From an uncultured delta proteobacterium (GTDB taxonomy: Bacteria > Myxococcota_A > Polyangia > Fen-1088): DNA of 64,000 nt. The stretch is from the NCBI GenBank assembly GCA_963796685.1, contig CAWCMR010000025.1:2016001-2080000 (forward strand), read 5' to 3'. The notes beneath the pieces are model-generated. The model ran no database searches. It was given only the letters and a program-made list of their open reading frames with translations, and was not told the DNA's origin. Positions 8,382 through 25,134 of the stretch are shown in pieces. Within the stretch, counting starts at the first letter, position 1. Every line of letters begins with the position of its first letter. The translations under genes and the position numbers were made by a program.

Positions 8382-11300
8382 CTAGAAACGGATCGCCTGC
8401 GCCGTCGAGGCGCGGGCGCGCAACAAGTCGAGCCAGCCGTCGCCCGAGAGGCGGCGGGCCAACTCGACGACGATGTGGCGCGGCCTTGCGTCGGTGTCCA
8501 CATTGCGGCCGAGACCTTGCAGGCACGACGGGCAGTTGGTGAGCAAGGTCGTGCCGCCCTCCGTGCCGAGGATCTCCCGGGTCGCGACGGACTTGCGGTG
8601 GCGCATGGCCTCGGTGATATCCGGGCGCGACAGCGCGAGCGTGCCCGCCTCGGAGCAGCAGTGAGGCACCGCGCGTACGTCGATTCCACAGACCGCGGCC
8701 AGGACTTGAGGGCCGCTGCCATCGAGCGAGTCGTGGCAGGGGGCGTGGTACGCGTAGTCGCCGCCACCGGGCAATCGTAGCCCGCGGTCGGCCGTCCAGC
8801 GCGCGACATCGACCACCGGGCAGCCGAAGATCTTGGCCGCCTCCATGGCGCCCAGGGCCTCGCGACAGGTGCCGCACGTGACCGCGACGGCATCGAAGCG
8901 GAGGTAGGCGAACATCTCGCGGATCTGGGTGAAGAGCAGCGCGCTTCGCAGCACGATCCGGCCGTGGAGGTCGGAGCGGCCGTTGGCGTGGGCCGGGAAC
9001 CCGCAGCAAAGGTAGGGCGGCGGCAGCACGACCCGGGCGCCTGTCTTGGTCAGCACGTGCAGCGCCGCCATCGAGACCGACGAGTAGAGTCGTTCGGAGC
9101 CACAACCCGGAAAATAGAACACGGTGGGGCTCGCCTCGCTCTCGGGCTCGAAGACCAGAGCCTGATCGGACGCGCAAGGGGGCAAGATGTCGCGCAGGGT
9201 GACGGGATCCGGGGCCGGAATGGGCGAGCGCAGAATCGACGCCACATACGAGCCCCTCGCGGCGTCCGCGTCTCCGGTCGGGGGGCCAAGGCGCGCCATC
9301 GAGCGCTGGACCGCCCCCAGCACACCCAGAACGCCGGTGCGAAAGATCGCATTGTAGGTGGGCGACCGGCTTTCCAGGTATCCAAGCGTCGCGCGCGTGG
9401 CCAGGGCGGTGTGCTTGTAGCCGTGCGCGACCAGGATCTCGCGCTCCAGCACCGAGACCTCACCGGTGTCGATGTCCACCGGGCAAGGTTTCTCGCACTT
9501 GTGGCAGATGGTGCAGTGGTCGGCCACCTCTTCGAGGTAGCGCAGAAGCTCGAAGCTCGAGCTGCGCTCGCGTTGGGCCTCGTAGAGCAACGCCTCGATG
9601 AGGGCGCCGATGGCCAGGTTCTTGCCACGCGGATGGTAGAAGAGATTGCGTGCGGGATAGAAGACGCAGCAGTTCGGCTTGCAACGGCCGCAGCGCACGC
9701 ACTGGGCGATGCGCAAGGCCAGCTCCTCGAGCTTGCCGTGCTGGAGGATGCGCGCTTCCAGGCTGAGCAGATTGAACGACGGCGTGAAGATGTGCTCGAT
9801 GGCCGCCAGATCGGAGAGCTTGCCCGGGTTCATGATCCCGGACGGGTCGACCCTGCGCCGGTAGTCTCCGAGCTCGGCGATGATGCTCGGTTCGATGTAG
9901 CGCAGCTTGGTGACGCCGATGCCGTGCTCGCCCGAGCACACCCCGCCGAGCTCGGCGACCTTGTCCATGATCCGATCCACTGCCTGTTGCGCGCGCCTCA
10001 TCATGGCGCGGTCGTTGGACAAGACCGGAATGTTCACGTGCACGTTGCCGTCGCCCGCGTGCATGTGCGTGGCCAGCACGATGAGCCGGCGCCGCTCCTC
10101 GGCGAACGCGACCTCGAGGTCGTCGCCGAGATGCTCGTGGCCGCGAACCAGCTCGCGAAGCTCATCGCGCAGCGCCTTGGCGATGGACAGCGAACGCAGG
10201 CTGCTCGGATCCGCGTCGGCCAAAACGGCGACTGACTGATCGCACTTCGCCCTGGCCTGTTCGATCTTCTCGGCCAGCCATGCGTCGTCCTCGCCACCCG
10301 CTTCGATCTGCAACAGCGTGCGCGCCCTCTCGATGAAGGCGAGCTGGCTTTCGCGCTCCTCTTCCACGTTCACGCCGTCGCAGAAACGCGCCAGCTCGGC
10401 CAGCGCGTCGAGGGGCAGGACGATGTCCTCGTTGAGCTTGAAGGCGTTGGTGCGTGCCGCGATGGCGCCGAGCTTCTTGCGGTCGGCCCAGTAGCGCTTG
10501 GTCTCGGCCTCGCCCTTGGCCTCGAACAGAAACGTGTTCTTGTGGTGCTCGAGGAGGTGGCGGATGCGGGCCACGCCGCGCGCCACCTCGGCCGGCTCGT
10601 GGCCGACGACATCGATCAGCAGCACGGCCTTGGGCGCGTCACCGCGCGGGGCCTTCACCTTGTAGCCGATGGCGCGGACATATTCGTTGTCGAAGTGCTC
10701 GAGCGCTTGCAGGACCTCGTGGCCCTCGTTGGGGAAGCCGCGCGACAGCTCGACGATGACCTTGCTGGCCTCGTCCATGTCCGGGCCGAAGAACTCCAGG
10801 CACAGCGTGGCCGCAGCCTCGTACTTCGGGTACAGGACGAAACGGGCCGAGGTGATGACGCCGTCGGTCCCCTCTTTCTGAAGACCGGGCACTCCCCCGA
10901 GGGTCTTGTTGGTGATGTCCTTCCACAGACCGCGCCGTCGGATCTCGCCGCCCTTGAGCGCAAGGGTGTCTGCGACCTTGCCGTCGCCGTCGAGGATTTC
11001 GAAGAGGACCTCGTCGCCAGGCAGGATCTTGCGCAGCGGGTGGCCCCTGCGCCGGACGGTCACGCGCTTGCCGCCCGGCATGGCGATGTCGTAGGACAGC
11101 AAGTTGTCGATGCACGTGCCCCACAGCACCGCCGTCTTGCCGCCGGCGTTTTCGGCGATGTTGCCGCCGATGGTGCAGGCCCACGCGCTCGTCGGATCGG
11201 TGGCGAACACCAGGCCGCGCGCCGCCGCAAACTCGATGGCCTGCTCGGTGACCACGCCGGCCTCTACATCGATGACGTTGGCCTTGGCTGTCGCGCCTGA

Positions 11301-12005
11301 GGCCAGGCGAAACGCTCGCTCGTCGATGCCGCGGATCCGACACAGCTTCTCGGTGTTGACGATGATGCAGCCCGGACGCAGAGGCACGGCGCCACCCGTC
11401 AGCCCCGTGCCGGCACCGCGCGGAATGGCGAACAGGCCCAGCCCGGCGATGGCCGCCAGCAGCGGCGCCACCTCCGCCTCTTCGCGGGGCATGGCCACCG
11501 CGACCGGCAGGTGCAGGCGCCAGTCGGTCGCGTCCGTGGCGTGCGACACGAGGGTATAGGGATCGAACAGCACGTTGGCCTTGCCGACGACGGCGCCGAG
11601 CGCGGCCGCGATACGCTGGCGCTCCGCGGGCGCCTGCGTGATCTCGCGCTTGATAGCGGCCAGCAGGCCGCGGCAGGCCCCGATGACCTCGCCGACCAGG
11701 GCCTCGCCCCCCGCGTTGGCCTCGACGATGCCGAGGTCGGTCTCGAGGTTGCGCAAGAATCTACGGCGGCGTTTTCGATCGTCGATCAGCTCCTGGTACA
11801 GGTAGGCGTTGCGCCGGTGGATGAGAACTTCGCCGAAGAAACGCATCAGCAAACGCGCCGAGCGACCGGTGACCCTGCGCTCGCGCAGCCGTTCGAGCTT
11901 GCGCCAGATGTCGTCGCCGAGCAGCTGCGACACGGCCTGCCGATCGTCGGCCGACGTGTAGTTGAAAGGGATCTCTCGTGGGGACTCGGGGCTGGGCTGG
12001 CGCAT
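8382..12005 (-). CDS. FAD-linked oxidase / Fe-S oxidoreductase (GlcD-GlcF-like fusion, DUF3683/DUF3400 type)
   Basis: REIPFNYTS N-terminus; PRGAGTGLTGG, HAGDGNVH and GEHGIG motifs; CVRCGRC, CTICHKC and CCG motifs; start placed at ATG 12005. Confidence 0.88.
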   Translation of the reverse strand: MRQPSPESPREIPFNYTSADDRQAVSQLLGDDIWRKLERLRERRVTGRSARLLMRFFGEVLIHRRNAYLYQELIDDRKRRRRFLRNLETDLGIVEANAGGEALVGEVIGACRGLLAAIKREITQAPAERQRIAAALGAVVGKANVLFDPYTLVSHATDATDWRLHLPVAVAMPREEAEVAPLLAAIAGLGLFAIPRGAGTGLTGGAVPLRPGCIIVNTEKLCRIRGIDERAFRLASGATAKANVIDVEAGVVTEQAIEFAAARGLVFATDPTSAWACTIGGNIAENAGGKTAVLWGTCIDNLLSYDIAMPGGKRVTVRRRGHPLRKILPGDEVLFEILDGDGKVADTLALKGGEIRRRGLWKDITNKTLGGVPGLQKEGTDGVITSARFVLYPKYEAAATLCLEFFGPDMDEASKVIVELSRGFPNEGHEVLQALEHFDNEYVRAIGYKVKAPRGDAPKAVLLIDVVGHEPAEVARGVARIRHLLEHHKNTFLFEAKGEAETKRYWADRKKLGAIAARTNAFKLNEDIVLPLDALAELARFCDGVNVEEERESQLAFIERARTLLQIEAGGEDDAWLAEKIEQARAKCDQSVAVLADADPSSLRSLSIAKALRDELRELVRGHEHLGDDLEVAFAEERRRLIVLATHMHAGDGNVHVNIPVLSNDRAMMRRAQQAVDRIMDKVAELGGVCSGEHGIGVTKLRYIEPSIIAELGDYRRRVDPSGIMNPGKLSDLAAIEHIFTPSFNLLSLEARILQHGKLEELALRIAQCVRCGRCKPNCCVFYPARNLFYHPRGKNLAIGALIEALLYEAQRERSSSFELLRYLEEVADHCTICHKCEKPCPVDIDTGEVSVLEREILVAHGYKHTALATRATLGYLESRSPTYNAIFRTGVLGVLGAVQRSMARLGPPTGDADAARGSYVASILRSPIPAPDPVTLRDILPPCASDQALVFEPESEASPTVFYFPGCGSERLYSSVSMAALHVLTKTGARVVLPPPYLCCGFPAHANGRSDLHGRIVLRSALLFTQIREMFAYLRFDAVAVTCGTCREALGAMEAAKIFGCPVVDVARWTADRGLRLPGGGDYAYHAPCHDSLDGSGPQVLAAVCGIDVRAVPHCCSEAGTLALSRPDITEAMRHRKSVATREILGTEGGTTLLTNCPSCLQGLGRNVDTDARPRHIVVELARRLSGDGWLDLLRARASTAQAIRF

Positions 12006-12205
12006 GCGCGATGGTGCCCAAGTTGTAGCAGATCGGCCAAGGTCAAGTGGGGCGACGACCCGCTCCGCGCCCACTTCCATGGCGACATCGTGTGGGCCTG
12101 GTTCGAAGCCGCCTCGAGCATCACCATGCACTTTGCCCGCGTGCACGCGGGAGGCACCTACACAGCTGGGTTGCCGAACGCCCTGGTGGTGCTACATAGA
12201 CAGGC

Positions 12206-12718
12206 GTGACGTCCATCCATCAGAAGACCAGTACGACGCATGCGCTCCTCGTCGCGGCACTCAGTGGATTCTTGTCCGTCGCTGCCGCATGTGGCGGCAA
12301 GGGGCCAGCGCCCGGCCCCACGGTCCCCACGTCGCCGGCTGGCGCGAACGCCGCGGATGCGGACAATGGTGCGCTCTACGACTCGGCGGCCGGTGCGTTC
12401 TCCGCCGATTCCGGCGCCTTGGTCGCGAGCTCCTCGGACACCCCGGCGAACCCGCATACACCAATCCCCGCGACCAAGTGTGCTTCCGGTCAGGTGCCCA
12501 ATCCGGAAGTGACCTCGACCGTGGTTGGCGCCCTCACCCAAGACGAGTTTGCGTCGCGGTGTGCTGCTCTCGACGGCATTTTCGAGATTCAGCCCCTGTG
12601 CGGCGGCTCCAATTCGTGCCGTGGCATGTCCTACGACTCTGGCTCGCAAACCTTGACCGAGCACTCGTGCCAGGCGACCAACACCTGCGCGGGTTATAGC
12701 TGCGTCGTGTGCGGCTGA
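12206..12718 (+). CDS. Cys-rich lipoprotein, candidate bufferin-like MNIO precursor
   Basis: Signal ALLVAALSGFLSVAAAC (lipobox); C-terminal CGGSNSCRG and CQATNTCAG motifs; adjacent to DUF692/DUF2063. Confidence 0.7.
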   Translation: MTSIHQKTSTTHALLVAALSGFLSVAAACGGKGPAPGPTVPTSPAGANAADADNGALYDSAAGAFSADSGALVASSSDTPANPHTPIPATKCASGQVPNPEVTSTVVGALTQDEFASRCAALDGIFEIQPLCGGSNSCRGMSYDSGSQTLTEHSCQATNTCAGYSCVVCG

Positions 12719-13593
12719 GCGTCCTCGTCGACATCACCGTCGCGGCGAAGCGTGCACCAGAAGCCGAGCTGGATGCTACGCGCGAGCCAAACGCGTACCT
12801 GCTCCGGCAAATTCCCTCGTTCCTGCACCGGGCAGGAGCTTTCGAGGCGCTCGAGCGCCTCGCCCACGGCGTGTTTCCCCAGCAGCATGATCAGCTCGGC
12901 CTCGCGAGCCTCGAGCGGGATGTGCGCGATGCCCGCTTCGCGCCGGACGATCGCCCAGGCCTGCGGTCGTGCGAGAAGTGGGGGCAACTCGGCGGTAGCG
13001 CGGTTCGATGACCCGAGCAGCGTGGTGCGGAGCGCGAGCAGCGCACGGTGCTCCTCGACGAGACGCAACGCCGGGTGGGCCGCCAGGTGCCCGCCAAGCA
13101 GGTCGGCCGCCTCGCTTGCCGATGGCCGATACGGCGGCAAGCTCGCCGCGCGAAACACCTCCCGATACGCGGCGTCGATACGCACGCTTTCGATCAGAGC
13201 GAGGCGCAGAGCGGGTTCGCTCTCGCCCAGTGCGTCCTCGAAAAATGCCGGGAAACCATCGGCGATCTGTTCGATGTCCCAGCCGCGCGGCGGGTGCGCG
13301 AGCAGGTACTTGGAGGCCACCGCATTGAGCTCCCAATAGCCCATCAGGCGCGCAGTGAGCGGAAATCCCGAATGCAGCACACTCAACAATCGAAACCAAT
13401 ACTGCCGATTGTAGACCGCGAGTCGTTCAGCTCCGCTGACCAGGGGGCCGTCCAGCGCTTGGGCGCATAGATGCGGGTCATACTGGGCGACCGCGGCGGT
13501 GAGTGTACCGCTCGCACGATCGAGTGGCGTTCGCAGCATGGTGCCGAACGCCGCTTGGAAGTCGGCGAGCCAACCGGGCGCGGGTCGGCTCAT
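12694..13593 (-). CDS. MNIO partner protein (DUF2063; HvfC/BufC-like)
   Basis: LADFQAAF, ERLAVYNRQYWFRL and FPLTARLMG motifs; ATG overlaps the DUF692 stop (TGATG). Confidence 0.85.
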   Translation of the reverse strand: MSRPAPGWLADFQAAFGTMLRTPLDRASGTLTAAVAQYDPHLCAQALDGPLVSGAERLAVYNRQYWFRLLSVLHSGFPLTARLMGYWELNAVASKYLLAHPPRGWDIEQIADGFPAFFEDALGESEPALRLALIESVRIDAAYREVFRAASLPPYRPSASEAADLLGGHLAAHPALRLVEEHRALLALRTTLLGSSNRATAELPPLLARPQAWAIVRREAGIAHIPLEAREAELIMLLGKHAVGEALERLESSCPVQERGNLPEQVRVWLARSIQLGFWCTLRRDGDVDEDAQPHTTQL

Positions 13594-14444
13594 CACCGCG
13601 CCTCCCGCGCCTTTTCCAGCTCCAGCAACGCCTCGGGCAGCGGTGGGATGCGGGCGTCCCACTCGAGCAACGTGGGGAAGGGACCGCCCAGGCGCCAGGC
13701 GCGCGCGTACAGCTCCCAAACCGGGTTCGCCACGGGGTGGTCGTGCGTGTCGACCACCGTCCCGTTCGGTTCGCGCGTGTGGCCCGCCAGATGCACCTCC
13801 AGCACGCGCGAAAAGTCGATCGCCGCGAGATAGACGTCTGCATCGAAGCCGTGGTTCTGGCTGGAGACATACACGTTGTTGATGTCGAACAGAGACCAGC
13901 AGCCCGACTCGCGCACCACGGCGGTATAGAACTCCCACTCGCTGAGGGTGGAAGAGCGGAGCTCGACGTAGCTCGACAGGTTCTCGATGGCGAAGGGCCT
14001 GCCGAGTCGGCGCTGCACCTCGCATGCGCGCTCGGCCGCCAGCTCGACCAACTCCGGGACGTACGGCGCCGGCAACAGATCGTGGTGGCTTACGCCGTGG
14101 GCGCCGGTCCAGCACAGGTGGTCGCTGACGAACGGCGCGTCCACGGCGTCCGCCAAGCGAGACAGTACCTCGAGGTACCGGTTGTCGAGTGGCGCGTGGC
14201 CGAGCAGGTTCAGGCCTACGCCGTGTAGAACGATGGGGTAGCTTGCCCGCACGCGTTCGAGGCGCGCGCGCGGCGTGGGCGCGGGACCGAGAAAATTCTC
14301 GCTGATGACCTCGAAGTAATCCACCTGCGGCCTGTGCTCGAGGACGTATTCGTAGTGTGGCACGCGCAGTCCTAGCCCGAGGGCCTCGGGCGCGAGCCCA
14401 CGCGCTCGGCGCAGGCTTTCTGCTTGTTCAGGGGAAAACGCCAT
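13593..14444 (-). CDS. Multinuclear non-heme iron-dependent oxidase (MNIO, DUF692/UPF0276)
   Basis: GLGLRVPHY, EVISENF, HGVGLNL, SDHLCW, IENLSSY, DINNVYV, EVHLAGH, DTHD and LLEWD motifs. Confidence 0.95.
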   Translation of the reverse strand: MAFSPEQAESLRRARGLAPEALGLGLRVPHYEYVLEHRPQVDYFEVISENFLGPAPTPRARLERVRASYPIVLHGVGLNLLGHAPLDNRYLEVLSRLADAVDAPFVSDHLCWTGAHGVSHHDLLPAPYVPELVELAAERACEVQRRLGRPFAIENLSSYVELRSSTLSEWEFYTAVVRESGCWSLFDINNVYVSSQNHGFDADVYLAAIDFSRVLEVHLAGHTREPNGTVVDTHDHPVANPVWELYARAWRLGGPFPTLLEWDARIPPLPEALLELEKAREAR

Positions 14445-14736
14445 GCCCTTGACCGTAGCACCGGTTTGGGCCTCAGGTCGTCGCTAGGTGTTCGGAGGAC
14501 GGAACCCGTCCGTCCTGCCCGCGAAGTAACGCTCCGCGAGTGTCGCTGGGGACACGTGTCGCGCGTGCCGCTCATGATGTTCGGTTTGCCCTCTGGTTGT
14601 TAGGCATGAAGCAAGGCTAGCATTGTACCCAAGAGGCTGCCCGGAAGCCCGCGGCCAACGGCCCGCGAGCCGGCGCGTCGATCTTGGCGAAGGCTCAGTC
14701 AACTCCAGAAGCGAAGCCCCTCATGAAGCAAGGAAT

Positions 14737-16455
14737 TCACTGCAGCCCAGCCGTCCTCCCAGGCCGGAGCAGCAAGATCTTGGCGAACTCGTTTTCGTGG
14801 ACAACGGGCAGCGCGCTGACCTTTTGGCGAGAAACGATCCAGTAGCTCAAGCCGAACCGAGCGCCGAGCTCGAGTGCGCGGTGGTCGTCCAGCTTGGCGA
14901 AGGCTTGTGAGGAGGCGACCATCAATCGCGGAAAGGCCAGCTGCGGGTCCATCGGGTCGACCCCCAGCGCCCGAAGCCGCTTGACCCAATCACGCGCAAA
15001 GGGTTGGTAGATGAGCATGCCCGAGCCCTCTTTCCAGGTTACGAAGGAGCTGCGACGCGAGAGCATGCGGAACGCAGCCCACGAAGGGTCTGTGAGAAAG
15101 CCGGCGTCGACCGGAGTCTGGCTGGCAACCCACTGCGTGAGTTGAACCTCAGCCTGGCTGCGCATCTGGAAGGGTGCGTGGGGGGCGGAATGTGACAACA
15201 ACAGCCAGCCCGAGAAGGCCGTGAGTATCCACAGCGGAAGCACCAGTGGTGCGAAGTGAATCAGCCACGGTCGACGCAATCGTCCCCCGATCGCGAGAGC
15301 CAGCCATGCGGGCATTGCCAGGGCTAGCAGCGCGACCTGAAGACCGTGAAAAGTCCAAAGGAGAAAGACACCGGTCAGGGCCACAGCCCCAAGCCCGAGC
15401 GCCCAGCCATTTTGGGCGTACTTCTCCAAGGTCACGACCACGGTTGCGGTGACAAACACCGCGGCCACCGGCGTCCACAGGTCACTGGAACGCGCGAACT
15501 GCAGGTTGATGCAGCCGGCGCTGCCAAGCACCTCGACGGCCACGGCGGCTCCCAGCAGGACCCAATGACCCAAGGTAAGGCCCAGCACCAACCTTGCCGC
15601 GCCCTTGCCGAGGATCGCCACGCGAATACACAGCAGCACGGCGGCACCCGCCAGGCTGGCGAGAATCCACTCCCGCAACGTCCAGCTGGATGGCAGGTAA
15701 TGCTGGGGCACGTACAGCGAGAGCAGACGCAGGTAGGTCTCTGGCTTGATGCGCGGCTGCCGCATGGTTTGCGCGGCCAGGACAATCGCGGGGCTCATGA
15801 TCAGAAAGGCGACCAGCCACGCACGTCGGCGCTTCAGCGTCGAGCGAGCCTCGGGAGATGCGATGGCGACCGCGGCCATCATGATTGCTCCGTGCATCGC
15901 GTGCATGATATTGGCAATCCCGACCACCCCGAAGAAGACTCCGGTGTGGAGCGGCTTGCCCTCGAGAACGAAGCTCAGACACAGGAGGTAGCTCGCCACC
16001 GCCAAGCTCGTGTGTTCGAAGTTGCGGGGCAGCACGGTCCCCCAGCCAAGCAGGGGAGACATGCCGAACGCGAAGAGACACCACACCACAGCTTCGGTCG
16101 TGCGACTTTCGCCGGCCAGGGTTCGCGCGAGTCGTCCGGCCCCGTACAGACAATACCCTCGCTGAAGAACCGTCAGCAGAACCAGCAGTGGCGCTTCTGG
16201 AATGAAGCGAAACGGGACCCACAGGATCCGCCAGAGCAATCCGGGGTAGTGAGACATCGCCGCCATGAATGGGTCGCCCGGGTACAAGCTCGGGTCGTTG
16301 GCGATCTGCACGAGCGGGATGTGTTGCTCGTTGTTGGTGTCGTAGATGGCCAAGCCAAGCAAGTGGAAACTCGCCAGGAGAGCGACGAGCTTCACGCCGT
16401 TGCGGACCCAGCGGGCTGACGACGAGGTAGGCGTGATTCCCAAAGCGGGTGCCAT
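14737..16455 (-). CDS. Polytopic membrane protein (DUF6798-like, possible GT-C glycosyltransferase)
   Basis: Many TM helices; DPSLYPGDPF, PQHYLPSSW and FRMLSRRSSFVTWKEG motifs; start uncertain. Confidence 0.65.
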   Translation of the reverse strand: MAPALGITPTSSSARWVRNGVKLVALLASFHLLGLAIYDTNNEQHIPLVQIANDPSLYPGDPFMAAMSHYPGLLWRILWVPFRFIPEAPLLVLLTVLQRGYCLYGAGRLARTLAGESRTTEAVVWCLFAFGMSPLLGWGTVLPRNFEHTSLAVASYLLCLSFVLEGKPLHTGVFFGVVGIANIMHAMHGAIMMAAVAIASPEARSTLKRRRAWLVAFLIMSPAIVLAAQTMRQPRIKPETYLRLLSLYVPQHYLPSSWTLREWILASLAGAAVLLCIRVAILGKGAARLVLGLTLGHWVLLGAAVAVEVLGSAGCINLQFARSSDLWTPVAAVFVTATVVVTLEKYAQNGWALGLGAVALTGVFLLWTFHGLQVALLALAMPAWLALAIGGRLRRPWLIHFAPLVLPLWILTAFSGWLLLSHSAPHAPFQMRSQAEVQLTQWVASQTPVDAGFLTDPSWAAFRMLSRRSSFVTWKEGSGMLIYQPFARDWVKRLRALGVDPMDPQLAFPRLMVASSQAFAKLDDHRALELGARFGLSYWIVSRQKVSALPVVHENEFAKILLLRPGRTAGLQ

Positions 16456-16689
16456 CTTCGCCCATTTTCGCGCAGGAGATGCACTTGTCTTCGACGCCAC
16501 GTCGAAGGCGCAAAATCGACCGACGAGGTACCATCCGACCAAGGGGTGGCGTCCAGCGGGATCCTGTTGGGTTTGCGCCTGGAAACGGCTGCGTAAGAGC
16601 GCTCGGCGTGGCGCAGAAGGGCCTCGGGCTGCCGGGATGCGCAGCATGTAGGACTCCCGCACCGGTGCTGTTTTCGTTCAGAGCTCCGA

Positions 16690-17493
16690 TCAGTTGGCGG
16701 TCAAGGAAAAACCATTGACCTGGAAGGTGGCGTCCGCGCCGTCTGTCGACACGATCTCGACACCGTAATCGATGGCACCGACCGTAGAGGTGGCCGGGAT
16801 CCAGCCCTTCGCGATGATGTAGGTGAAGAACGATAGCAGGTTCACGGTCCCGGACGCCAGGTTGGTGACCTCCACGAATGCGATGTAGCTGCCACTCTTG
16901 TAGACCTGATAGCTTTCACCGTCGAAGACCACGGTGTCGAGCACCGTCCCTGATGGCACCTGGTGGTAATTGTCGGTCCAGATCATCACCTCGGTGGCGC
17001 CCGTGGTGGCGACACCGTTCAGCCAGATGTCGTAAGCAAATTCGTAAATCCCGACGTGCGGCGCGGTGTGGGCAAAGCTGCTCCAAAGGGTGCTGAAGGA
17101 GTTGATGAGGGGAGCGCCGTTGAAATCCTTGTGCACGTTGGGATACGTCTTCACGGCGCCATCGCCGGTGACGTTGTCCATGCTTGCGACCACGTACCAG
17201 TTGTCGTAGTTGCATACGTACAGGGTTTGCGTTACCTCGTAGCTCGCCGCATTCCAGGTGTCCGTATCGACGTAGAAGCCACCGAGCGTGATGCCGTCTT
17301 GGGGGTTCCCCGGATTCAATGGCAAGATGTGGGAAGGATTCGTGCAGGTCTGCGCCACCGTGCTGGCGCCGCCCTCTACCGGCAACGTCGTCTGGGTCCC
17401 GCTGCAGCCCGAGAACGCAACGAGAGCCGCCCCGATCAGCGCCGCGCGGTGTTTCCGCAAGGTGGAGATCGTGGCGGCTTGCTTCATGGTCAT
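16690..17493 (-). CDS. Glycoside hydrolase family 12 endoglucanase, lipoprotein
   Basis: VKTYPN, AYDIWL, EVMIW (nucleophile Glu) and GVEI (acid/base Glu); lipobox FSGC. Confidence 0.8.
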   Translation of the reverse strand: MTMKQAATISTLRKHRAALIGAALVAFSGCSGTQTTLPVEGGASTVAQTCTNPSHILPLNPGNPQDGITLGGFYVDTDTWNAASYEVTQTLYVCNYDNWYVVASMDNVTGDGAVKTYPNVHKDFNGAPLINSFSTLWSSFAHTAPHVGIYEFAYDIWLNGVATTGATEVMIWTDNYHQVPSGTVLDTVVFDGESYQVYKSGSYIAFVEVTNLASGTVNLLSFFTYIIAKGWIPATSTVGAIDYGVEIVSTDGADATFQVNGFSLTAN

Positions 17494-17817: not shown

Positions 17818-18672
17818 TCAGCGGCCCAGCATGGCGTCGAGAATCACGGCGCCCATGACCATCACGGCATAATAGTTGATGGCGTGGAAAGCTCGGCGGA
17901 AGCCCTGTTTGCTCGGGACACGCAGCGAGCGCCAGGCTACGACGGTCAGCCAGGTGCCGGCCGCCGCCAGGCCGAGGCCGAGGAAGGGCGAGCTCGACAG
18001 GCCGAAGATGGGAAGCAGCAGCGCCGAGGCCGCGGTGGCCGCGGTCCACATGAAGGTCACCCGCGACAGGGACTCCGTGCCCATGGCACGCACGAAGGTG
18101 GGGAACTGCGCCTGCTCGTAGTCGCCGCTGATACCGAGGGCCAGCAGCCAGAAATGCGGGATCTGCCACATGAGCAAGAAAAACGACAGTGAGAGGATGG
18201 GGCCGTCGAGCACGCCGCCGGCGCACACCCACCCGATGGCCGGGGGGATGGCGCCGATCACGGAGCCGACCACCGAGGCAAGCGAGCTGACACGTTTCAG
18301 GTAGGTGTAGATGCCGTTGTACCAAATCACGGCCAAGGCACCGAGCCCGGCCGCCATCGCCCCGCCCATGAGCCACAGCGAGGCCAAGGCCACAGCGCCG
18401 AGCGCCGAAGCCAGGACGACGGCCCCGGCGGCGGAAATCTTGCCCGACGGAATGGGGCGCTTTCGCGTGCGATCCATCAGGGCGTCCAGCTTGTGCTCCT
18501 GGGCCTCGTTGAGGGCGCACGCGGCAAAAGCAAGGATCAAGACCGCGCCCGACATGGGCAGCAGTCGCCAGGTCAAGGAATGGGTACGCGCCACGTAGCC
18601 GGTCGCGGCGGACACCGTCGACATCATCGAGATGGGGAACTTGAACAGCTGGGCGAAGTCGCGCCGGTTCAC
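17818..18672 (-). CDS. cyoE: Protoheme IX farnesyltransferase (heme O synthase)
   Basis: DALMDRTRKRPIPSG, YTYLKR, GAIPP and WQIPHF motifs. Confidence 0.93.
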   Translation of the reverse strand: MNRRDFAQLFKFPISMMSTVSAATGYVARTHSLTWRLLPMSGAVLILAFAACALNEAQEHKLDALMDRTRKRPIPSGKISAAGAVVLASALGAVALASLWLMGGAMAAGLGALAVIWYNGIYTYLKRVSSLASVVGSVIGAIPPAIGWVCAGGVLDGPILSLSFFLLMWQIPHFWLLALGISGDYEQAQFPTFVRAMGTESLSRVTFMWTAATAASALLLPIFGLSSSPFLGLGLAAAGTWLTVVAWRSLRVPSKQGFRRAFHAINYYAVMVMGAVILDAMLGR

Positions 18673-18682
18673 GAAGGCTCCA

Positions 18683-19618
18683 TCATCGCAGGGATTTGAT
18701 GAAGGCGACCAAATCGTCCACGTCGCGCTCTTTCAAATCCACCTTGGGCATCTGCGCCGCGAAGCCCTTGACGACCTCTTGCGGGGGGTGGTGAATAGAC
18801 CGTTTGATGTAGTCCTCGTCGGCGGTGACGGTCGACTCCTTGCCGTCGGTCAGCACCGCGACCTGGCTGCCCCACAGCCCCTTCCAGGTCGGTCCCACCA
18901 GCTTGGATCCATCGGTGGTGTGGCAGGCCACGCAGCCCTTGAGCTTGAAGGCGCGCTCGCCTCGCGCGGGATCGGGACCGGCGGGTCCGGTCTCCGCGAG
19001 CTTGGGCGGCTCCGCCGATTCGCCGAAATACCACGTCGAGAATGCCCCCTCGGGAATGACATGGACCTTGGACAGCATGTACGAGTGGTTGACCCCGCAC
19101 ATGACCGTGCACTCGATGTCGTAGTCGCCCAATTGATCGGCCTGGAACCACGTGTAGTTGTGCTTGCCCGGAACGACGTCGGACTTGACCCGGAACGCCG
19201 GTATGTAGAACCCGTGCAGGACGTCGAGGGACTTGAGGTTGAGGCGGACCGGCCGTCCGAGGGCGACGTAGAGCTCGCTGGTCTGGCGGCCGTTCGGGTA
19301 GGTAAACGACCACGCCCATTGCCGAGCCGTCACCTGAATCACCATGGCGTCGCGTGGAACCTCGCGCAGGTAGCGATAGTTGGTCCACCCGTAATAGAAC
19401 ATGGTCAAGAACAGAACCAACGGGATCCCGGTCCACAGCAATTCGAGCGTGGTATGGCCGTGGATGTCTTCGGCCTTCGCGCCCTTGCTCCGTCGGAAGC
19501 GCACGACGAGGTAGATCATCACGAAGGTGATGAACACCAGGAACGCGATGGTAAGCGCGGAAATGTAGAGAAAGACCGCGTCGACTTTGTCCGAAACGCT
19601 GGAAGCACCGCCAAACAT
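18683..19618 (-). CDS. coxB: Cytochrome c oxidase subunit II with fused C-terminal cytochrome c
   Basis: DVLHGF, CuA motif CTVMCGVNHSYM, heme motif CVACH. Confidence 0.95.
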   Translation of the reverse strand: MFGGASSVSDKVDAVFLYISALTIAFLVFITFVMIYLVVRFRRSKGAKAEDIHGHTTLELLWTGIPLVLFLTMFYYGWTNYRYLREVPRDAMVIQVTARQWAWSFTYPNGRQTSELYVALGRPVRLNLKSLDVLHGFYIPAFRVKSDVVPGKHNYTWFQADQLGDYDIECTVMCGVNHSYMLSKVHVIPEGAFSTWYFGESAEPPKLAETGPAGPDPARGERAFKLKGCVACHTTDGSKLVGPTWKGLWGSQVAVLTDGKESTVTADEDYIKRSIHHPPQEVVKGFAAQMPKVDLKERDVDDLVAFIKSLR

Positions 19619-19624
19619 CGTCGT

Positions 19625-19927
19625 CTACCTATAGAGATAATCGGCAAAGGTTAGAAGGATGAAGATGACGAGCACGGCGACGGCGATGGCGACCATGTAC
19701 TTGAGCGCCGCGCTCTCGTCCTTGAGGTGCATGAAATAGTAGAAAACCAGGCTGGCCTTGGTGGGGGTGATGACCAGCAGTCCGAGCAGGGCCAGATTCG
19801 GCCGGCGCGCGAGGCTCAGCGCGACCAGCATCCCGGTCAACGTGACCAAGGCGATCCAGACCTTGATGTAGGTCGCGTAGCCGAGGACGTGCGGCTGTTC
19901 GACTTGGGATTGCATGCTTTGGCTCAT
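19625..19927 (-). CDS. Cytochrome c oxidase subunit IV family protein
   Basis: Three TM helices; KASLVFYYFMHLK motif. Confidence 0.9.
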   Translation of the reverse strand: MSQSMQSQVEQPHVLGYATYIKVWIALVTLTGMLVALSLARRPNLALLGLLVITPTKASLVFYYFMHLKDESAALKYMVAIAVAVLVIFILLTFADYLYR

Positions 19928-19945
19928 GGGCGATGGTTCATGGGG

Positions 19946-20581
19946 CTAGGCGGCCAGGTAGAAGAGGGGCAAAAGGAAAATCCAGATGACGTCGACGAGG
20001 TGCCAGTAAAGGCCCGTGTTCTCCAGCTTGATGAAATCGTCCTGGCGGATGCGATCGCGCTTGATGAGGATCAGCATGACCGACATGACCACCACGCCGA
20101 CCGTGACGTGCAAGCCGTGCAGCCCGGTCATGCCGAAGTATAGGCCGAAGAACAGGCGCTCGCCCGGGGGACGTGTCATCAGATGCTCCGCGCCGGGGTA
20201 GAGGCCGTGATGAATCTTGGCCTTCCACTCGAAGAACTTGTTCACCAAGAAGACCACGCCGAGCACCATGGTCGAGCTGAGGAAAATCATGGACTGGAGC
20301 TTGCGCCCGAGACGCAGGGCCACGATGGCCAGCACCATGGTCAAGCTGCTGGTGAGAAGGATGATGGTGTTGGTGACCCCGAGAGTGACGTTCAATTCGC
20401 CCGAAGCATGATGGAAATCGTGCGGGTGCATCGAGCGGTACATGCCGTAAGCCACGAACAAGCCGCCGAACAGGATCAGCTCGGTGAAGATGAAGATCCA
20501 CATGCCGAGCTTGGCGCCGGCATAATCGCGATGCTCGGCGGCATGCTCGCCGGCGGGCTGGGGCTCGGCGGACGCGTTCAT
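19946..20581 (-). CDS. coxC: Cytochrome c oxidase subunit III
   Basis: GMWIFIFTE, TGLHGLHV and YWHLVDVIW motifs; ATG 20581 overlaps the subunit I stop. Confidence 0.95.
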   Translation of the reverse strand: MNASAEPQPAGEHAAEHRDYAGAKLGMWIFIFTELILFGGLFVAYGMYRSMHPHDFHHASGELNVTLGVTNTIILLTSSLTMVLAIVALRLGRKLQSMIFLSSTMVLGVVFLVNKFFEWKAKIHHGLYPGAEHLMTRPPGERLFFGLYFGMTGLHGLHVTVGVVVMSVMLILIKRDRIRQDDFIKLENTGLYWHLVDVIWIFLLPLFYLAA

Positions 20582-22224
20582 GTCGCGGGCTCCTTGGCCG
20601 GGGGATTGAAGGTGTAGGGCGGCTCGGTGATGACCGGAAGAATGTCGAAGTTCTCCACCGGCGGGGGCGACGGAACGGTCCATTCCAAGGTCACGCCGCC
20701 CCACGGGTTGGCAGGAATGTGCGTCTTGCGGAAGAGGCCGCGCAAGAGGTTGGCGAACATGATGAGAAGCCCAGCCACCATGATCCAGGACCCGACGGTG
20801 GCGACGATGTGTCCGGTATGGAACTGGGGAAGGTGATCGTAGTAGCGGCGGGGCATGCCCTCCATTCCCAATACCAGGAACGTGAAATAGAGCACATTGA
20901 AGCCGACGAAGATGTGCACGAAGGCCACGATGGCGGTGCGCTCGTTGTACATGCGGCCGAACATCTTGGGATACCAGTAGTGGATGGCTGCGAAGAAGGC
21001 GAACCCGGTGCCGCCGAACATGACGTAGTGGAAGTGACCCACGATGAAATAGGTATCGTGGATGTGCACATTGATGGCGAGGGCGCCCTGGAACAGGCCG
21101 GTGAGCCCGCCTATGCTGAACAGGAAGATGAAGGCCAAGGCGAAGAGCATGGGCGGGCGCAATTCGATCGATCCCTTGTACAGGGTGGCCACCCAGTTGA
21201 AGACCTTGATGGCGCTCGGGATCGCAACCAGGAAGGTGAGCAGGGAGAAGACGACGATGGCGAATTCGCTCATGCCGCTGGTGAACATGTGGTGTGCCCA
21301 CACCAGCGAGCCGAGGGCAGCGATTCCCATGCTGGAGTACACGATGGCCTTGTAGCCGAAGATGGTCCGGTGGGCGAAGGTCGGGATGATCTCCGAGATC
21401 GCGCCCATGGCGGGTAGGATCATGATGTAGACCGCCGGGTGCGAGTAGGTCCAGAAGAGGTGCTGGTACAGGATGGGATCGCCGCCGATGGCGGGATCGA
21501 AGATGCCGAGATGGAAGACACGCTCGAGGATGACCAGCAAGAGCGTGATGCCGAGGATGGGGGTGGCCAGCACTTGCACCCAGGCGGTTGCGTACAGCGA
21601 CCAGGGGAAGAGCGGCATGCGCATCCAACTCATGCCCTTGGCTCGCATGCGGTGGATGGTGGTGATGAAGTTGAGGCCGGTGAGGATGGAGGAGAACCCG
21701 AGGATGAAGGCGCCGAACACCGCCATGGTGACGTTGGTTCCGGTCCGCACGCTGTAGGGCACGTAGAACGACCATCCCGTGTCGGGAGGTCCCCCGCCGG
21801 TAAACAGCGACAACACGGCGACGGCGCCGCCGGTCATGAACAGGTACCAGGACAGAAGATTGAGACGCGGGAAGGCCACGTCCTTGGCGCCGATCATGAT
21901 GGGCAGAAAGAAGTTCCCGAACACCGCTGGCAGTCCCGGGATCACGAAGAGAAAGATCATGATCACGCCGTGCACGGTGAACATGGCGTTGTAGGTCGTG
22001 GGCTTCATGATCGTGGGGCCCATGGTCAGCTGCTCGATGCGCATGAGCACGCCGATGGTCATGCCCACCAGGAAGAACGTGAGCATGGCGGTGAGATACA
22101 TGAGGCCGATGCGCTTGTGATCCGTGGTGAGGAGCCAAGAGAGAACGCCCTTGCGCGAAGAGCCCGCGTAGAAGTCGGGTTCGCCTGTGGGGGCGACGGC
22201 GATGGTTGCGGCGGCAGTGCTCAC
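20578..22224 (-). CDS. coxA: Heme-copper oxidase subunit I, type A2
   Basis: DHKRIG, YSHPAVY (A2 signature), WAHHMF, HFHY and MPRRY motifs; GTG start at 22224. Confidence 0.96.
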   Translation of the reverse strand: MSTAAATIAVAPTGEPDFYAGSSRKGVLSWLLTTDHKRIGLMYLTAMLTFFLVGMTIGVLMRIEQLTMGPTIMKPTTYNAMFTVHGVIMIFLFVIPGLPAVFGNFFLPIMIGAKDVAFPRLNLLSWYLFMTGGAVAVLSLFTGGGPPDTGWSFYVPYSVRTGTNVTMAVFGAFILGFSSILTGLNFITTIHRMRAKGMSWMRMPLFPWSLYATAWVQVLATPILGITLLLVILERVFHLGIFDPAIGGDPILYQHLFWTYSHPAVYIMILPAMGAISEIIPTFAHRTIFGYKAIVYSSMGIAALGSLVWAHHMFTSGMSEFAIVVFSLLTFLVAIPSAIKVFNWVATLYKGSIELRPPMLFALAFIFLFSIGGLTGLFQGALAINVHIHDTYFIVGHFHYVMFGGTGFAFFAAIHYWYPKMFGRMYNERTAIVAFVHIFVGFNVLYFTFLVLGMEGMPRRYYDHLPQFHTGHIVATVGSWIMVAGLLIMFANLLRGLFRKTHIPANPWGGVTLEWTVPSPPPVENFDILPVITEPPYTFNPPAKEPAT

Positions 22225-23015
22225 GAAGATTCCTTTGTATCGGACCTGGGATGCTTCTTGCGCTTCACGGCCACGGCAAGGCCGAACCCGGCGGCCAGCA
22301 TGATGGTGAAAGCCGCCGCGACGCGCGTGACGTTGAGGGAATACCTGTGGCCGGAGGGGTCGTAGCTGTAGCAGAACCTGAGGAAGCGAGCGATGGTAGG
22401 ACCGGTACGCCCTTGCGCCGCCTCGGTCACGGCCATCTTGACGTCGAAGGGCAGGAAGGTGATCCCATACAGGTAGCGCGTCACCATGCCGGTGGGTGAC
22501 AGCACCATGATGGCGCCCGGGTGAACGTAGTCCTCCCCGTGCTTGGCGAACTTGAACCCGACCGCGTCGGCCAAGCGTTTGGTCGAAATCGGGTCGCCGG
22601 TCAGGAAGCGCCAGGCATTCTGCGGGAAAGCGGGTCCGAGCTGCTTCGTGTAGTTCTTCTTCTTTTCGGCCGCAAGCTCCGCGTTGTCGCGCGGGTCGAA
22701 GCTCACCGTCAGGATCTGGAAGTCCTTCCCCGGGATCTGATCGGTCTTTTGCAGCATCTCGGCCACGCCGTTGAGAAGCGGCGTGCACAGGCCGGTGCAG
22801 CGGAAATAGTTGAGCGTGAGCAAGGTCGGCTTGTCGATGAGATCGTGCAGCGAGACCCGGTCGCCTTGCTCGTCGACGAGCTTGATGTCGAGCGGCACCG
22901 TCTGCCCCAGCTTTTCATCGATGCCGATGTCGGGCGGGTTCGCGGTGGGCGCCGCGGCCAGGGCCATGCGGGCTGGTAGCGACAACAACAGACAGGTTGC
23001 GAGTAGGGTCTTCAT
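22221..23015 (-). CDS. SCO1/SenC family copper chaperone
   Basis: YFRCTGLC (CxxxC), conserved His in YVHP, C-terminal TM. Confidence 0.9.
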   Translation of the reverse strand: MKTLLATCLLLSLPARMALAAAPTANPPDIGIDEKLGQTVPLDIKLVDEQGDRVSLHDLIDKPTLLTLNYFRCTGLCTPLLNGVAEMLQKTDQIPGKDFQILTVSFDPRDNAELAAEKKKNYTKQLGPAFPQNAWRFLTGDPISTKRLADAVGFKFAKHGEDYVHPGAIMVLSPTGMVTRYLYGITFLPFDVKMAVTEAAQGRTGPTIARFLRFCYSYDPSGHRYSLNVTRVAAAFTIMLAAGFGLAVAVKRKKHPRSDTKESS

Positions 23016-23983
23016 GGTTGCTTAGCCTGATCCTCCGAAGGGGCCTGCGCCACTGTCTCGTTACCGAGCAGCGCGCGGGCGATGTCCTGCCACTCGGCGG
23101 CCGTGACATCGGCCAGCGAGGGCGCGAAACCGTTGGCAGGCGCGCCGGCCGCCCAGTCGCGCGCCACGGCGGTGCGGTCGGTGCGCGTCGATGTGGCGGC
23201 CACGGTGCGCGCCACGCGCGCCGGATCCACGATCACCTCGCGCAACAGATCCGCCGTCGGGGAAAGGTCGTCGCGGCCGGGCAGCTTGAGCGGCGGTACA
23301 GGACGCTCTTCTTGCAGCATCTTCGTGATGGCCATGGAGACAGGAATGCGGTTGGGTATGTGAACGCCCTTGGAACGGAACAGGTTGGCCAGCGCCTCGG
23401 TCGCCTTGGGCTCTTCGGGACCGTGATCGAACGCGCCGAGCGAGCGGACGTAGTGCACGAGCGCCATGCGATCCGCGGGAACGATGAAGTCGAAGGCAGC
23501 CATGCCGGTTCCCTTCACGCCGGAGGTGATCGTGGTGAAGATGTCGGTGATGCGGTAGCCGCGCGTCCAGTTGTTGGGCTGGGTGAAGTTGCGCGGCTTG
23601 GGGTTGAGGGTACCCGCCGCGGGGCCGTCGCCGTGCCCGGTCTCGCCGTGGCACGACACGCAGTTCTGCTTGAACAGGGCCTCGCCGCGCGCCAGCAGCT
23701 TGGGATTCGGGGTCATGACCGTCGATGGATCCACGGGCGGCAGATCCCTGCCCTTGCTGGGCGGCATCTCCGTTTGGTCGAGCCAACCCACGCTGGCCGG
23801 CGCCGGCTGGTCAGAAGGCGCGCGCTTTCGCGGCTCGCGCTCGCGGATCAAGGCGGGAAGAATGATCAGCCCGAAGAGCACGAAGGTGATGGCCACGCCG
23901 AAAAAGACGGCATAGCGGCCGACCAGCCCCTGGGCTTCCTCGCGCCACGTGGGTGGGGTGTGCTCTTCGCTCACAGCTGCCAC
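23012..23983 (-). CDS. Membrane-anchored monoheme cytochrome c
   Basis: N-terminal TM; CVSCHG..G.GDGP..LNPKPRNF; axial Met in GTGM. Confidence 0.85.
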   Translation of the reverse strand: MAAVSEEHTPPTWREEAQGLVGRYAVFFGVAITFVLFGLIILPALIREREPRKRAPSDQPAPASVGWLDQTEMPPSKGRDLPPVDPSTVMTPNPKLLARGEALFKQNCVSCHGETGHGDGPAAGTLNPKPRNFTQPNNWTRGYRITDIFTTITSGVKGTGMAAFDFIVPADRMALVHYVRSLGAFDHGPEEPKATEALANLFRSKGVHIPNRIPVSMAITKMLQEERPVPPLKLPGRDDLSPTADLLREVIVDPARVARTVAATSTRTDRTAVARDWAAGAPANGFAPSLADVTAAEWQDIARALLGNETVAQAPSEDQAKQP

Positions 23984-25134
23984 TCCAATCCCTTGGTCAG
24001 CAGCGGGTCGCCTACGGGCATGTCGGCGCCGCGGCCCATGGCGCGACGAATCTGCAGGAGGCCGAGGCCGAGGAAAAAACAGGCCATGACGAGCTCGGGC
24101 CAGCCGAGAAGCGGCCGCGGTCCGAGCACCGGGAAGACTAGCCAGTACATGTCGACGAAGTGCGCGAACAGGAGGGAGAGCATGGCGACGCGCAGGATTT
24201 TCGGGTTCTTCTTTCCCACGGCTCCGATGAGCAGAAAGAAGGGCAGCGTGAAGTGGAAGACCGGCAGGAGCATGGCCACGGGGTACCAGGGGCCTTCGAT
24301 GCGATGCTTAAACCACACCACTTCCTCGGGCAGGTTGGCGTACCAGATCAGCATGTACTGCGCGAAGCCGATGTAGGCGTAGAAGACCGTGAAGGCCAGG
24401 CCCAGGGTACCGAGATTGTAGAAGTGCTTGGGCTTGACCTCGGGCAGGCGGCCCTTGCGAATGAGGCCGAGCACGCCCAGCGCCATGGCGGCGATGCCGG
24501 ACAGGAACGTGCCGGCGAAGAGATACACGCCGAACATGTCGCTGTACCACTCGGGCTCGAGACCCGAGATCCAGTCGAAGGCAAGGATGGTCACGGTGAA
24601 GAAGAAGACCACCACGAACACGGGCGCCAGCTTGCGCGCCCGAATGGTGAACGCGGCGTCCTTGCTTTCGTCCTGGCGCAAAGATCCGCGCACATAGAAG
24701 GAATAGAAGAGCAACCAGAGCAGGGAGCACGCAGCCAGCCGGATGGCGAAGAAGGGCAGGTTCAGCCAAGGCGCCTTGGCGACCAGGATGGGGTTGTGCG
24801 CCGCCTCTGCGCGCGTCCAGGGGAAGAGCACGGGCAGGCTGAAGAAGGCGACAATGAGCAGGGGCACGGCCAGCGGAATCAGGGACGCGATTCGCTCAGG
24901 CACGCGGCGCATGGGCACGCTCCAGTGCGCGCCAACCAGGCGCTCGAGCGCGACCAGGAACAGGTTGCCGAGACCCAGGGTGAGCAGGAACAGCGTCCAC
25001 ACCAGCCAGTTGGCCCAGAAGCGAGTCGGCCCTTCCTGGGTGTAGACCAGCACGGTACCCACCGCGCCGAAGAGGGTCAGCGCAATCAGGGCGTTGCGTG
25101 CGAGCAAAGAGCGGGGAGCGTCGTTCGGGGTCAT
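23971..25134 (-). CDS. actF: Alternative complex III subunit ActF
   Basis: Polytopic; DWISGLEPEWYSDMFG and QYMLIWYANLPEE motifs. Confidence 0.88.
   Translation of the reverse strand: MTPNDAPRSLLARNALIALTLFGAVGTVLVYTQEGPTRFWANWLVWTLFLLTLGLGNLFLVALERLVGAHWSVPMRRVPERIASLIPLAVPLLIVAFFSLPVLFPWTRAEAAHNPILVAKAPWLNLPFFAIRLAACSLLWLLFYSFYVRGSLRQDESKDAAFTIRARKLAPVFVVVFFFTVTILAFDWISGLEPEWYSDMFGVYLFAGTFLSGIAAMALGVLGLIRKGRLPEVKPKHFYNLGTLGLAFTVFYAYIGFAQYMLIWYANLPEEVVWFKHRIEGPWYPVAMLLPVFHFTLPFFLLIGAVGKKNPKILRVAMLSLLFAHFVDMYWLVFPVLGPRPLLGWPELVMACFFLGLGLLQIRRAMGRGADMPVGDPLLTKGLEWQL

Follow-up and report, generated by a model that had tools for sequence, protein, structure and literature searches.

The best-described relatives of the locus considered here are the bufferins, peptides that are synthesized ribosomally and modified post-translationally (RiPPs) and are matured by an enzyme of the MNIO family (DUF692) and a DUF2063 partner. 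BufB and BufC suffice to convert the central cysteines of the precursor to 5-thiooxazoles, with a loss of 4 Da each; in Bufferin 2 (Buf2), six cysteines are conserved in the core, the outer pair is disulfide-bonded, and modification does not require the Sec signal peptide (PMC11626156). According to a survey of such systems, precursors with Sec signal peptides pair with DUF2063-type partners and Buf2 precursors span 51-367 amino acids, about 16% of them having lipoprotein signal peptides; the survey calls the gene order bufABC strictly conserved, gathered only open reading frames (ORFs) that precede MNIO genes, and also reports precursor genes unlinked to MNIO genes (PMC12452194). Products of MNIOs can also be lipidated, subsets of bufferins and oxazolins among them, and such peptides have been named 'DAG-RiPPs': cytoplasmic modification of a lipobox-bearing peptide comes first and triacylation after it, the latter shown for the oxazolin NedA (PMC13056109). 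Here we describe a candidate relative of these systems in a 64-kb stretch of DNA from an uncultured delta proteobacterium (the window, to which all coordinates below refer): an MNIO gene, the gene for its DUF2063 partner and, on the opposite strand, a gene for a cysteine-rich protein of 170 residues that has the appearance of a lipoprotein. These three genes are probably a module of the bufferin/captophorin type, in which the precursor would be modified in the cytoplasm, exported and lipidated, and would bind metal; as far as comparative genomics reaches, this interpretation is supported.

The elements of the locus are as follows, with the evidence for each in brackets.

13593-14444, minus strand: MNIO (DUF692) of BufB type, 283 amino acids (Pfam PF05114 MbnB_TglH_ChrH, E 1.8e-93)
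12694-13593, minus strand: DUF2063 partner (PME type 1, BufC-like), 299 amino acids from its ATG (Pfam PF09836, E 5.8e-15)
12206-12718, plus strand: putative precursor gene for the 170-residue Cys-rich lipoprotein, GTG start, TGA stop (ORF and 45 homologues)
12206-12292, plus strand: predicted signal peptide ending at the lipobox Cys29, LSVAAAC (sequence reading, conservation of Cys29)
12293-12457, plus strand: low-complexity linker of Pro, Ala, Ser, Gly and Asp, residues 30-84 (length and sequence vary among homologues)
12458-12715, plus strand: conserved Cys-rich domain, residues 85-170, the presumed modified core (conservation in 318 sequences, AlphaFold2 model)
12599-12625, plus strand: motif 1, C132-G-G-S-N-S-C138-R-G (loop between model strands 2 and 3)
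12668-12712, plus strand: motif 2, C155-Q-A-T-N-T-C161-A-G-Y-S-C166-V-V-C169 (loop between model strands 4 and 5, and the last strand)
12694-12718, no strand: 25 nt shared by the 3' ends of the precursor and DUF2063 genes, which converge here (ORF coordinates)

An initial annotation of this DNA had described an MNIO gene coupled to a DUF2063 gene and facing an ORF of 170 codons, and all of this is there, 'facing' being understood as convergent: the precursor gene and the DUF2063-MNIO pair run towards each other and share 25 nt at their 3' ends. The TGA stop codon of the MNIO gene (13595-13593) and the ATG of the DUF2063 gene (13593-13591) have one base in common, and the sequence GGGAGG lies 7 nt 5' of the DUF2063 start, so translational coupling of the two is plausible; an alternative DUF2063 start, a GTG at 13596, would give a 4-base overlap with the MNIO gene. 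The only possible start of the 170-codon ORF is the GTG at 12206. No intrinsic terminator was found in 11900-14900, and no Rfam family in the window. Named relatives of the genes under study are all from uncultured Myxococcota, most of them Polyangiaceae.

That the 170-codon ORF is a real gene is clear from comparison with its relatives, since 45 proteins of comparable length are homologous to it and it forms part of a large profile family, with cysteines invariant in the close subfamily, which is beyond what chance would produce. The 82-residue C-terminal part alone found 162 cluster representatives (E<=1e-3, in 1.84 billion proteins), and a profile built from 27 members found 484. The precursor family as a whole has more than 300 cluster representatives, nearly all from Myxococcota. 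Their only label in the sources is 'hypothetical protein', and the members listed come from uncultured genomes, with no named cultured isolate among them. Pfam gave no match to the window precursor, nor any shared family among 127 members tested. The layout is constant across the family, with a hydrophobic N-terminus ending in Cys, a linker that is very variable, and a conserved domain of about 80 residues. In the window protein, the hydrophobic N-terminus fits a PROSITE-style lipobox pattern, and no fewer than 90% of the 25 homologues aligned keep its Cys29; the same pattern precedes the domain in 179 of the 262 family proteins whose N-terminus could be evaluated. From the lipobox Cys to the start of the domain there are 52 residues, compared with a family median of 17.

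Cys29 is followed by eight further cysteines (92, 119, 132, 138, 155, 161, 166 and 169), in a domain that includes CGGSNSCRG and CQATNTCAGYSCVVC. The lipobox, the Pro/Ala/Ser linker and the eight-Cys domain with its two motifs were thus correctly recognized in the initial annotation (the lipobox as judged by the PROSITE-style pattern). All eight domain cysteines are invariant in the close subfamily (the same 25 homologues). Over the whole family, six of them form a near-invariant core: among 318 domain sequences, C119, C132, C161 and C166 are found in every one, C155 in 317 and C138 in 286. C92 (134/318) and C169 (108/318) are specific to the subfamily of the window protein. The Cys region consists of two halves on one theme, C-G-G-S-N-S-C-R-G-M-S and C-Q-A-T-N-T-C-A-G-Y-S, and the Asn of the second, N159, is present in 307 of the 318 sequences. 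In the first half, N136 and C138 are jointly absent in 30 sequences, while the Asn alone is kept in two and the Cys alone in 14, a pattern of joint loss that fits N-x-C as a single (recognition) unit. Variants without Asn136 and Cys138 (such as G-V-V-T-G-P-G in place of G-S-N-S-C-R-G) retain the other five core cysteines; they occur at L036 and L042, two of the three comparison loci (described below) that were fully examined and have no MNIO, but also at the MNIO-linked L038.

An AlphaFold2 model of residues 81-170 (predicted local distance difference test score, pLDDT, 78; predicted template modelling score, pTM, 0.72; mean pLDDT 54 over residues 81-90) suggests a beta-alpha-beta4 fold, that is, a strand, a helix and four strands, in which each C-x5-C motif would occupy an inter-strand loop, with C119 in the helix and C166 in the last strand. 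For comparison, precursors of the BufA2 family are characterized by a small fold in which a beta-sheet and a helix are held by a disulfide joining the first Cys to the last. Searches of the PDB with the domain gave nothing significant either by sequence (best E 0.16, a chance match) or by fold (best E 0.46, template modelling score 0.37, to the hepatocyte growth factor N domain); no bufferin structure turned up in these PDB searches, and a search for look-alikes in the ESM Atlas gave no usable match. A match of residues 6-46 to the NCBIfam model 'invert_tail' (E 0.0099, 16 bits, for a cut-off of 37) was set aside as reflecting signal-peptide composition. In 54 of 308 family proteins more than 60 residues follow the domain, and many of these extensions are cytochrome c domains; in one sub-branch (e.g. 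P0059, P0079 and P0192) a cytochrome c domain bearing a CxxCH site comes after the Cys domain.

The initial annotation had asked whether homologues of the precursor co-occur with MNIO and DUF2063 genes, and in the great majority of cases they do. A single scan of species-representative genomes yielded 43 loci with a precursor relative, 42 in Myxococcota or unclassified 'delta proteobacteria' and one (L040) in Oligoflexus. A DUF2063 gene adjoins the precursor relative in 37 of the 43, and an MNIO gene as well in 36; the remaining one is L037, where the DUF2063 gene lies at the end of its contig. When ORFs of at least 70 amino acids in the 43 loci and the window were clustered all against all, the only widely conserved ones (apart from shadow frames) were the three genes of the module. 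The next cluster occurs in just six loci, and no metal-related genes are among the next most shared neighbours. Two clusters are of this six-locus size, one of Ser/Thr kinases and the other without a Pfam match, and a cluster of histidine kinases is found in three loci.

Among the 37 linked loci the convergent arrangement is found in 33; three others are divergent (L034, L038 and L039) and one is co-directional (L040). In 32 of the convergent loci the genes stand tightly tail-to-tail, the gap between them having a median of 2 nt, which leaves no room for terminators, and in 15 the stops overlap, although the value for L014 arises artificially from a stop within the match. When 36 MNIO sequences were placed in a quickly built maximum-likelihood tree, the convergent layout spanned the whole of the myxobacterial part; the root of this tree was placed by hand on L040 and many of its forks are unsupported, so the order of events is not proved by it. 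At L040, the sole locus from outside the myxobacteria, the genes stand in the canonical order precursor-MNIO-DUF2063, and the precursor in this position (L040:1844-2629, plus strand) is of the cytochrome c-fused form. At L009, L015, L017, L019, L021, L022 and L025 the precursor gene is present two or three times in tandem, facing one DUF2063-MNIO pair.

Might the enzymes of the window nevertheless serve a canonical bufferin precursor whose gene lies in another part of the genome, the lipoprotein being a bystander? The publication of precursor genes unlinked to MNIO genes (PMC12452194) gives some substance to this idea, as does the fact that our view of the source genome extends to 64 kb, and the initial annotation had itself raised the prospect of a short canonical precursor. 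The window holds no such ORF. The 292 nt that precede the MNIO gene (14445-14736) contain no plausible ORF that is Cys-rich or has a signal peptide, bufferin models match none of the 36 further window ORFs that have four or more Cys, and the profile of the precursor family finds a single copy in the window, the 170-codon ORF itself. Nor, as judged by eye, is any Cys-rich ORF shared among the 600-nt regions upstream of MNIO in the 36 loci (L005, at a contig end, has no upstream sequence). At one locus (L018:8051-8476, minus strand) a different lipoprotein-like ORF, of 141 amino acids with 13 Cys and no Pfam match, lies 87 nt upstream of MNIO, and is present in addition to the convergent family member. 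The published genome table also bears on the question: among the rows listed, 12 of 12 Polyangia have zero Buf1, Buf_6-12Cys (Buf2) and Buf_EGKCG genes, yet MNIO genes are present in nine of the 12 and DUF2063 genes in eight (PMC12452194). Since, in addition, the linkage between lipoprotein and enzyme pair is too constant for a bystander, we consider a substrate elsewhere very improbable.

With regard to the enzymes, the MNIO only just reaches the cut-off of the NCBIfam equivalog model MNIO_BufB (310.3 bits, cut-off 310), and it falls far under those for HvfB (220 against 360), ApyH, MbnB and ChrH. Its profile matches in the PDB are 3bww (E 5.5e-55) and MbnB (E 1.9e-11), and 63 columns of the alignment are invariant among 36 orthologues. 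The partner does not reach the NCBIfam model HvfC (18.8, cut-off 142), and PDB searches by its profile or its single sequence gave no match. Its AlphaFold2 model (pLDDT 86.8, pTM 0.83) is more informative: Foldseek aligned it with TglI in the TglHI holoenzyme (8hi7_A, E 2.6e-7) and with NGO1945 (3dee, E 3.1e-4), which has been named as a solved DUF2063 partner (PMC13097082), and there is a local match to a RiPP recognition element (RRE) bound to its leader peptide (5v1u, probability 0.91), the match to MbnC being weak (E 0.45). As modelled, then, the partner folds like the solved MNIO partners TglI and NGO1945, and its C-terminal part is RRE-like.

A pair of this kind could act on the lipoprotein and yet make something other than a bufferin, whether the difference lay in the product (an oxazolone-thioamide or a crosslink) or in the role (another metal, or redox and electron transfer). 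Closely related MNIOs catalyse different reactions, and published structures have needed revision (PMC13097082); moreover, the C-terminal extensions described above, many of them cytochrome c, might be taken to suggest electron transfer, and no copper-stress gene lies beside the module in the window. On the other hand, the best score of the enzyme is to BufB, the N-x-C-[KRA]-G motif is of a kind seen in published bufferin-type sequences, and all of the DUF2063-dependent MNIO products characterised from Cys-rich signal-peptide precursors are, in the account of PMC13097082, copper-binding thiooxazole peptides. We therefore regard a different product or role as unlikely and keep to the view that the module is of the bufferin/captophorin type.

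Several observations weigh against that view. The first concerns the curated models, a comparison that the initial annotation had proposed and that went against it. The only known family that the precursor domain resembles, and that weakly, is NCBIfam Cu_RiPP_BufA2, with which the window protein scores 12 bits (E 0.18) for a cut-off of 60; by a hand count, 53 of 145 relatives match at E<=0.01, in every case over profile positions ~27-61 of 79, but the best score among the 145 is 26.6 bits, still below the cut-off. To DUF2282, the family of BufA1, there is no match in 127 members at E<=0.1, nor in the window protein at E<=10. The family therefore has in common with Buf2 a count of six cysteines and the region of the central Cys motif, but lies outside the curated family. 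The second is that the lipobox is judged by the PROSITE-style pattern alone. The third is gene order: the order precursor-MNIO-partner on one strand fails in the window, as in the 33 convergent loci, and the precursor gene lies on the strand opposite its presumed maturase, contrary to the 'strict' bufABC order, so that co-expression is not guaranteed. A sigma-70-like promoter was looked for in 11900-14900 and not found, nor was any 7-mer enriched ahead of the MNIO genes (35) or the precursor genes (47), for which start codons were guessed. Fourthly, no DoxX, sigma/anti-sigma or copper-resistance gene was found near the module, which makes the metal a guess. Finally, of the six loci without the pair, L029, L036 and L042 have no MNIO or DUF2063 genes within 6 kb on both sides, and L026 and L043, examined on one flank only, have none on that flank; L008, whose contig ends 26 nt past the match, cannot be judged.

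Some of these same observations are what might be expected if the lipoprotein were an unmodified, disulfide-rich periplasmic or surface protein, kept beside the pair as receptor or carrier of the true product, or for some unrelated reason. The convergent orientation and the failure of the BufA2 model would both be natural in that case, the domain is predicted to fold by itself, and non-RiPP lipoproteins have been reported in or beside bufferin clusters (PMC13056109). However, the enzyme pair would then be without a substrate gene in any of the 36 loci, the conserved cysteines occur in bufferin-like motifs and share with Buf2 a core of six, and the Oligoflexus homologue occupies the canonical precursor position. 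Taking all this together, it seems to us quite unlikely that the lipoprotein is unmodified. The initial proposal of a membrane-anchored, bufferin-like precursor served by the adjacent enzyme pair thus survives the tests of linkage and of rival precursors, but membership of BufA2 and the claimed unusualness of the precursor fall away. The latter had been argued from the belief that BufA2-type precursors are small and soluble, which is contradicted by the lengths of Buf2 precursors and their proportion of lipoproteins (PMC12452194) and by the DAG-RiPPs (PMC13056109), so the claim was overstated.

If the module is of the bufferin/captophorin type, events might run as follows. The 170-residue protein would be synthesized with a lipoprotein signal peptide and, before its export, cytoplasmic MNIO together with the RRE-like DUF2063 partner would oxidize cysteines of the C-terminal domain to 5-thiooxazoles, the likeliest targets being the N-x-C-x-G cysteines C138 and C161, and possibly C132 and C155 too. 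Export by Sec, diacylglycerol modification and cleavage at Cys29 would come next, and the remaining cysteines would form disulfides, C119 with C166 and, in the subfamily, C92 with C169. The outcome would be a folded domain held at a membrane on a flexible linker of about 55 residues, serving as a tethered buffer for copper or another soft metal. Oxidation at N-x-C-x-G, lipidation of Cys29 and chelation of copper are suggested here by analogy with published Buf2 and DAG-RiPPs; more generally, we infer the modified cysteines, the chemistry, the lipidation, the metal and the membrane from Buf1, Buf2 and the lipidated RiPPs, while what has been observed is that the three genes exist and belong to the families named, that their linkage recurs across genomes, and that the Cys pattern is conserved.

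How much of this is new? Precursors of bufferin type that are long, and others that are lipid-anchored, have been published, so that idea is not; what is new is a divergent precursor family together with a conserved tail-to-tail layout that breaks the bufABC order. The advance is incremental, as the chemistry, the lipidation route and long precursors had been published before. No paper on the family or on the tail-to-tail layout was found by full-text searches of the literature, although the lists of PMC13056109, which mined any neighbourhood ORF of 50-160 amino acids with a lipoprotein signal, might hold members. Ten motif strings of the family were likewise absent from the 'Cys-rich ORFs' supplement of PMC13097082, which does hold sequences (a doubled EGKCG gave 10,255 matches there).

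A bolder proposition would be that the gene described here is the first example of a hitherto unrecognized, Myxococcota-wide family of bufferin/captophorin precursors, mostly lipoproteins and in some cases fused to cytochrome c; that the family has been arranged tail-to-tail with its maturase operon, in many cases with 3' ends that overlap, since early in the phylum, the layout being functional in that convergent transcription ties the levels of precursor and maturase together; and that surveys confined to ORFs preceding MNIO genes left the pairs of Polyangia without a substrate. We think it unlikely that all of this will hold. Several of the listed Polyangia, Sorangium, Sandaracinus and Labilithrix among them, have between one and six MNIO genes and up to three DUF2063 genes (PMC12452194), and look like bearers of orphan pairs that such a family might explain. 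On the main reading, that the module is of the bufferin/captophorin type, there would be a substrate for the MNIO/DUF2063 pairs of Polyangia, the genome-mining rule that the precursor precedes the enzyme would be seen to miss real systems, and a mostly lipid-anchored branch with cytochrome c fusions would join the class of copper-buffering peptides. There would also be a natural case in which to study how an enzyme pair recognizes a folded 80-residue domain, and what a membrane-tethered metal buffer does for large soil predators and cellulose degraders.

The surroundings of the module in the window are those of a GC-rich (~65%) chromosome, with the housekeeping genes gyrA, gltX and prmC and cellulases of glycoside hydrolase (GH) families GH6 and GH12. 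Directly upstream of the MNIO gene, 14737-16662 (minus strand) encodes a 641-residue multi-pass membrane protein with DUF6798, and upstream of that, 16690-17493 (minus strand) encodes a glycoside hydrolase of family GH12 whose N-terminus is lipoprotein-like; neither gene is conserved beside the module in the other loci. On the other side, and divergent from the precursor gene, an ORF of 1254 codons (8382-12146, minus strand) combines domains of five kinds, DUF3683, FAD-linked oxidase, 4Fe-4S dicluster, CCG and DUF3400; the start codon annotated for it probably lies too far upstream. Further away, a long row of respiratory genes (17818-31402, minus strand) encodes haem O synthase, an aa3-type oxidase, SCO1/SenC, c-type cytochromes, alternative complex III (ActD, NrfD-like and Fe-S components) and a multihaem cytochrome. 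Its cytochrome c oxidase operon begins its listed order with the gene for haem O synthase (17818-18672) and continues with CoxII, which includes a cytochrome c domain, then CoxIV, CoxIII, CoxI, SCO1/SenC (22221-23015) and the alternative complex III genes. The initial annotation had drawn attention to an oxidase/SCO operon some 3.4 kb from the module; the operon is real, but no cox or SCO gene accompanies the module in the other loci, and we treat the proximity as coincidence and not as a functional link.

It remains to set the module beside the systems already known. It most resembles Bufferin 2 (BufA2-BufB2-BufC2 of Caulobacter vibrioides, also classed as BUF_6/12Cys and in the captophorin 'Cys-Lys' group), with which it shares a BufB-type MNIO and a DUF2063 partner, the absence of DoxX, and a precursor with an N-terminal export signal, a folded six-Cys core (as predicted here) and motifs resembling N-x-C-[KR]-G; long precursors and lipoproteins also make up a minority of the Buf2 precursors in print. 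It differs from Bufferin 2 in that the curated BufA2 model misses both the window protein and its relatives, in the two additional cysteines of the window subfamily, in that lipoprotein signals (as recognized by pattern) are the rule and not the property of about one precursor in six, and in having a precursor gene that converges on the maturase operon where that of Bufferin 2 comes before it. Bufferin 1 (BufA1, DUF2282; BufBCD) has the same enzyme pair and the same logic, and a C-x-G-x-N-x-C-K-G-type motif occurs in DUF2282-flagged sequences of a published supplement; in the present system, by contrast, a DUF2282 match, DoxX and sigma/anti-sigma genes are all missing, and the core has six cysteines and not four. 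The 'CxxxxC' family of the survey was ruled out, because five residues separate the cysteines here and the DoxX and Lactamase_B_2 neighbours described for that family are absent.

The lipidated MNIO RiPPs (DybA with DybH, and NedA with NedBC) provide the parallel for cytoplasmic modification followed by export and lipidation of the lipobox Cys, which is the route predicted here, and NedA is served by an MNIO with a DUF2063-type partner, as we propose for the window precursor (PMC13056109); their core motifs are, however, CPxCGxG or EGKCG repeats. Oxazolin and fontiphorin (HvfABC and FonABC) also combine an MNIO and a PME1 partner with Cys-rich exported precursors, and theirs bind copper (PMC13097082). 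Those precursors carry Lys-Cys EGKCG repeats, unlike the window protein, and both proteins of the window pair score below the HvfB and HvfC cut-offs. Methanobactin MbnABC and TglHI resemble the present pair in joining a TIM-barrel MNIO to a helical or RRE-like partner, but they act on short, leader-dependent precursors without signal peptides and by other chemistry, and of their two partners it is TglI that the DUF2063 protein of the window resembles in its predicted fold, the match to MbnC being weak.

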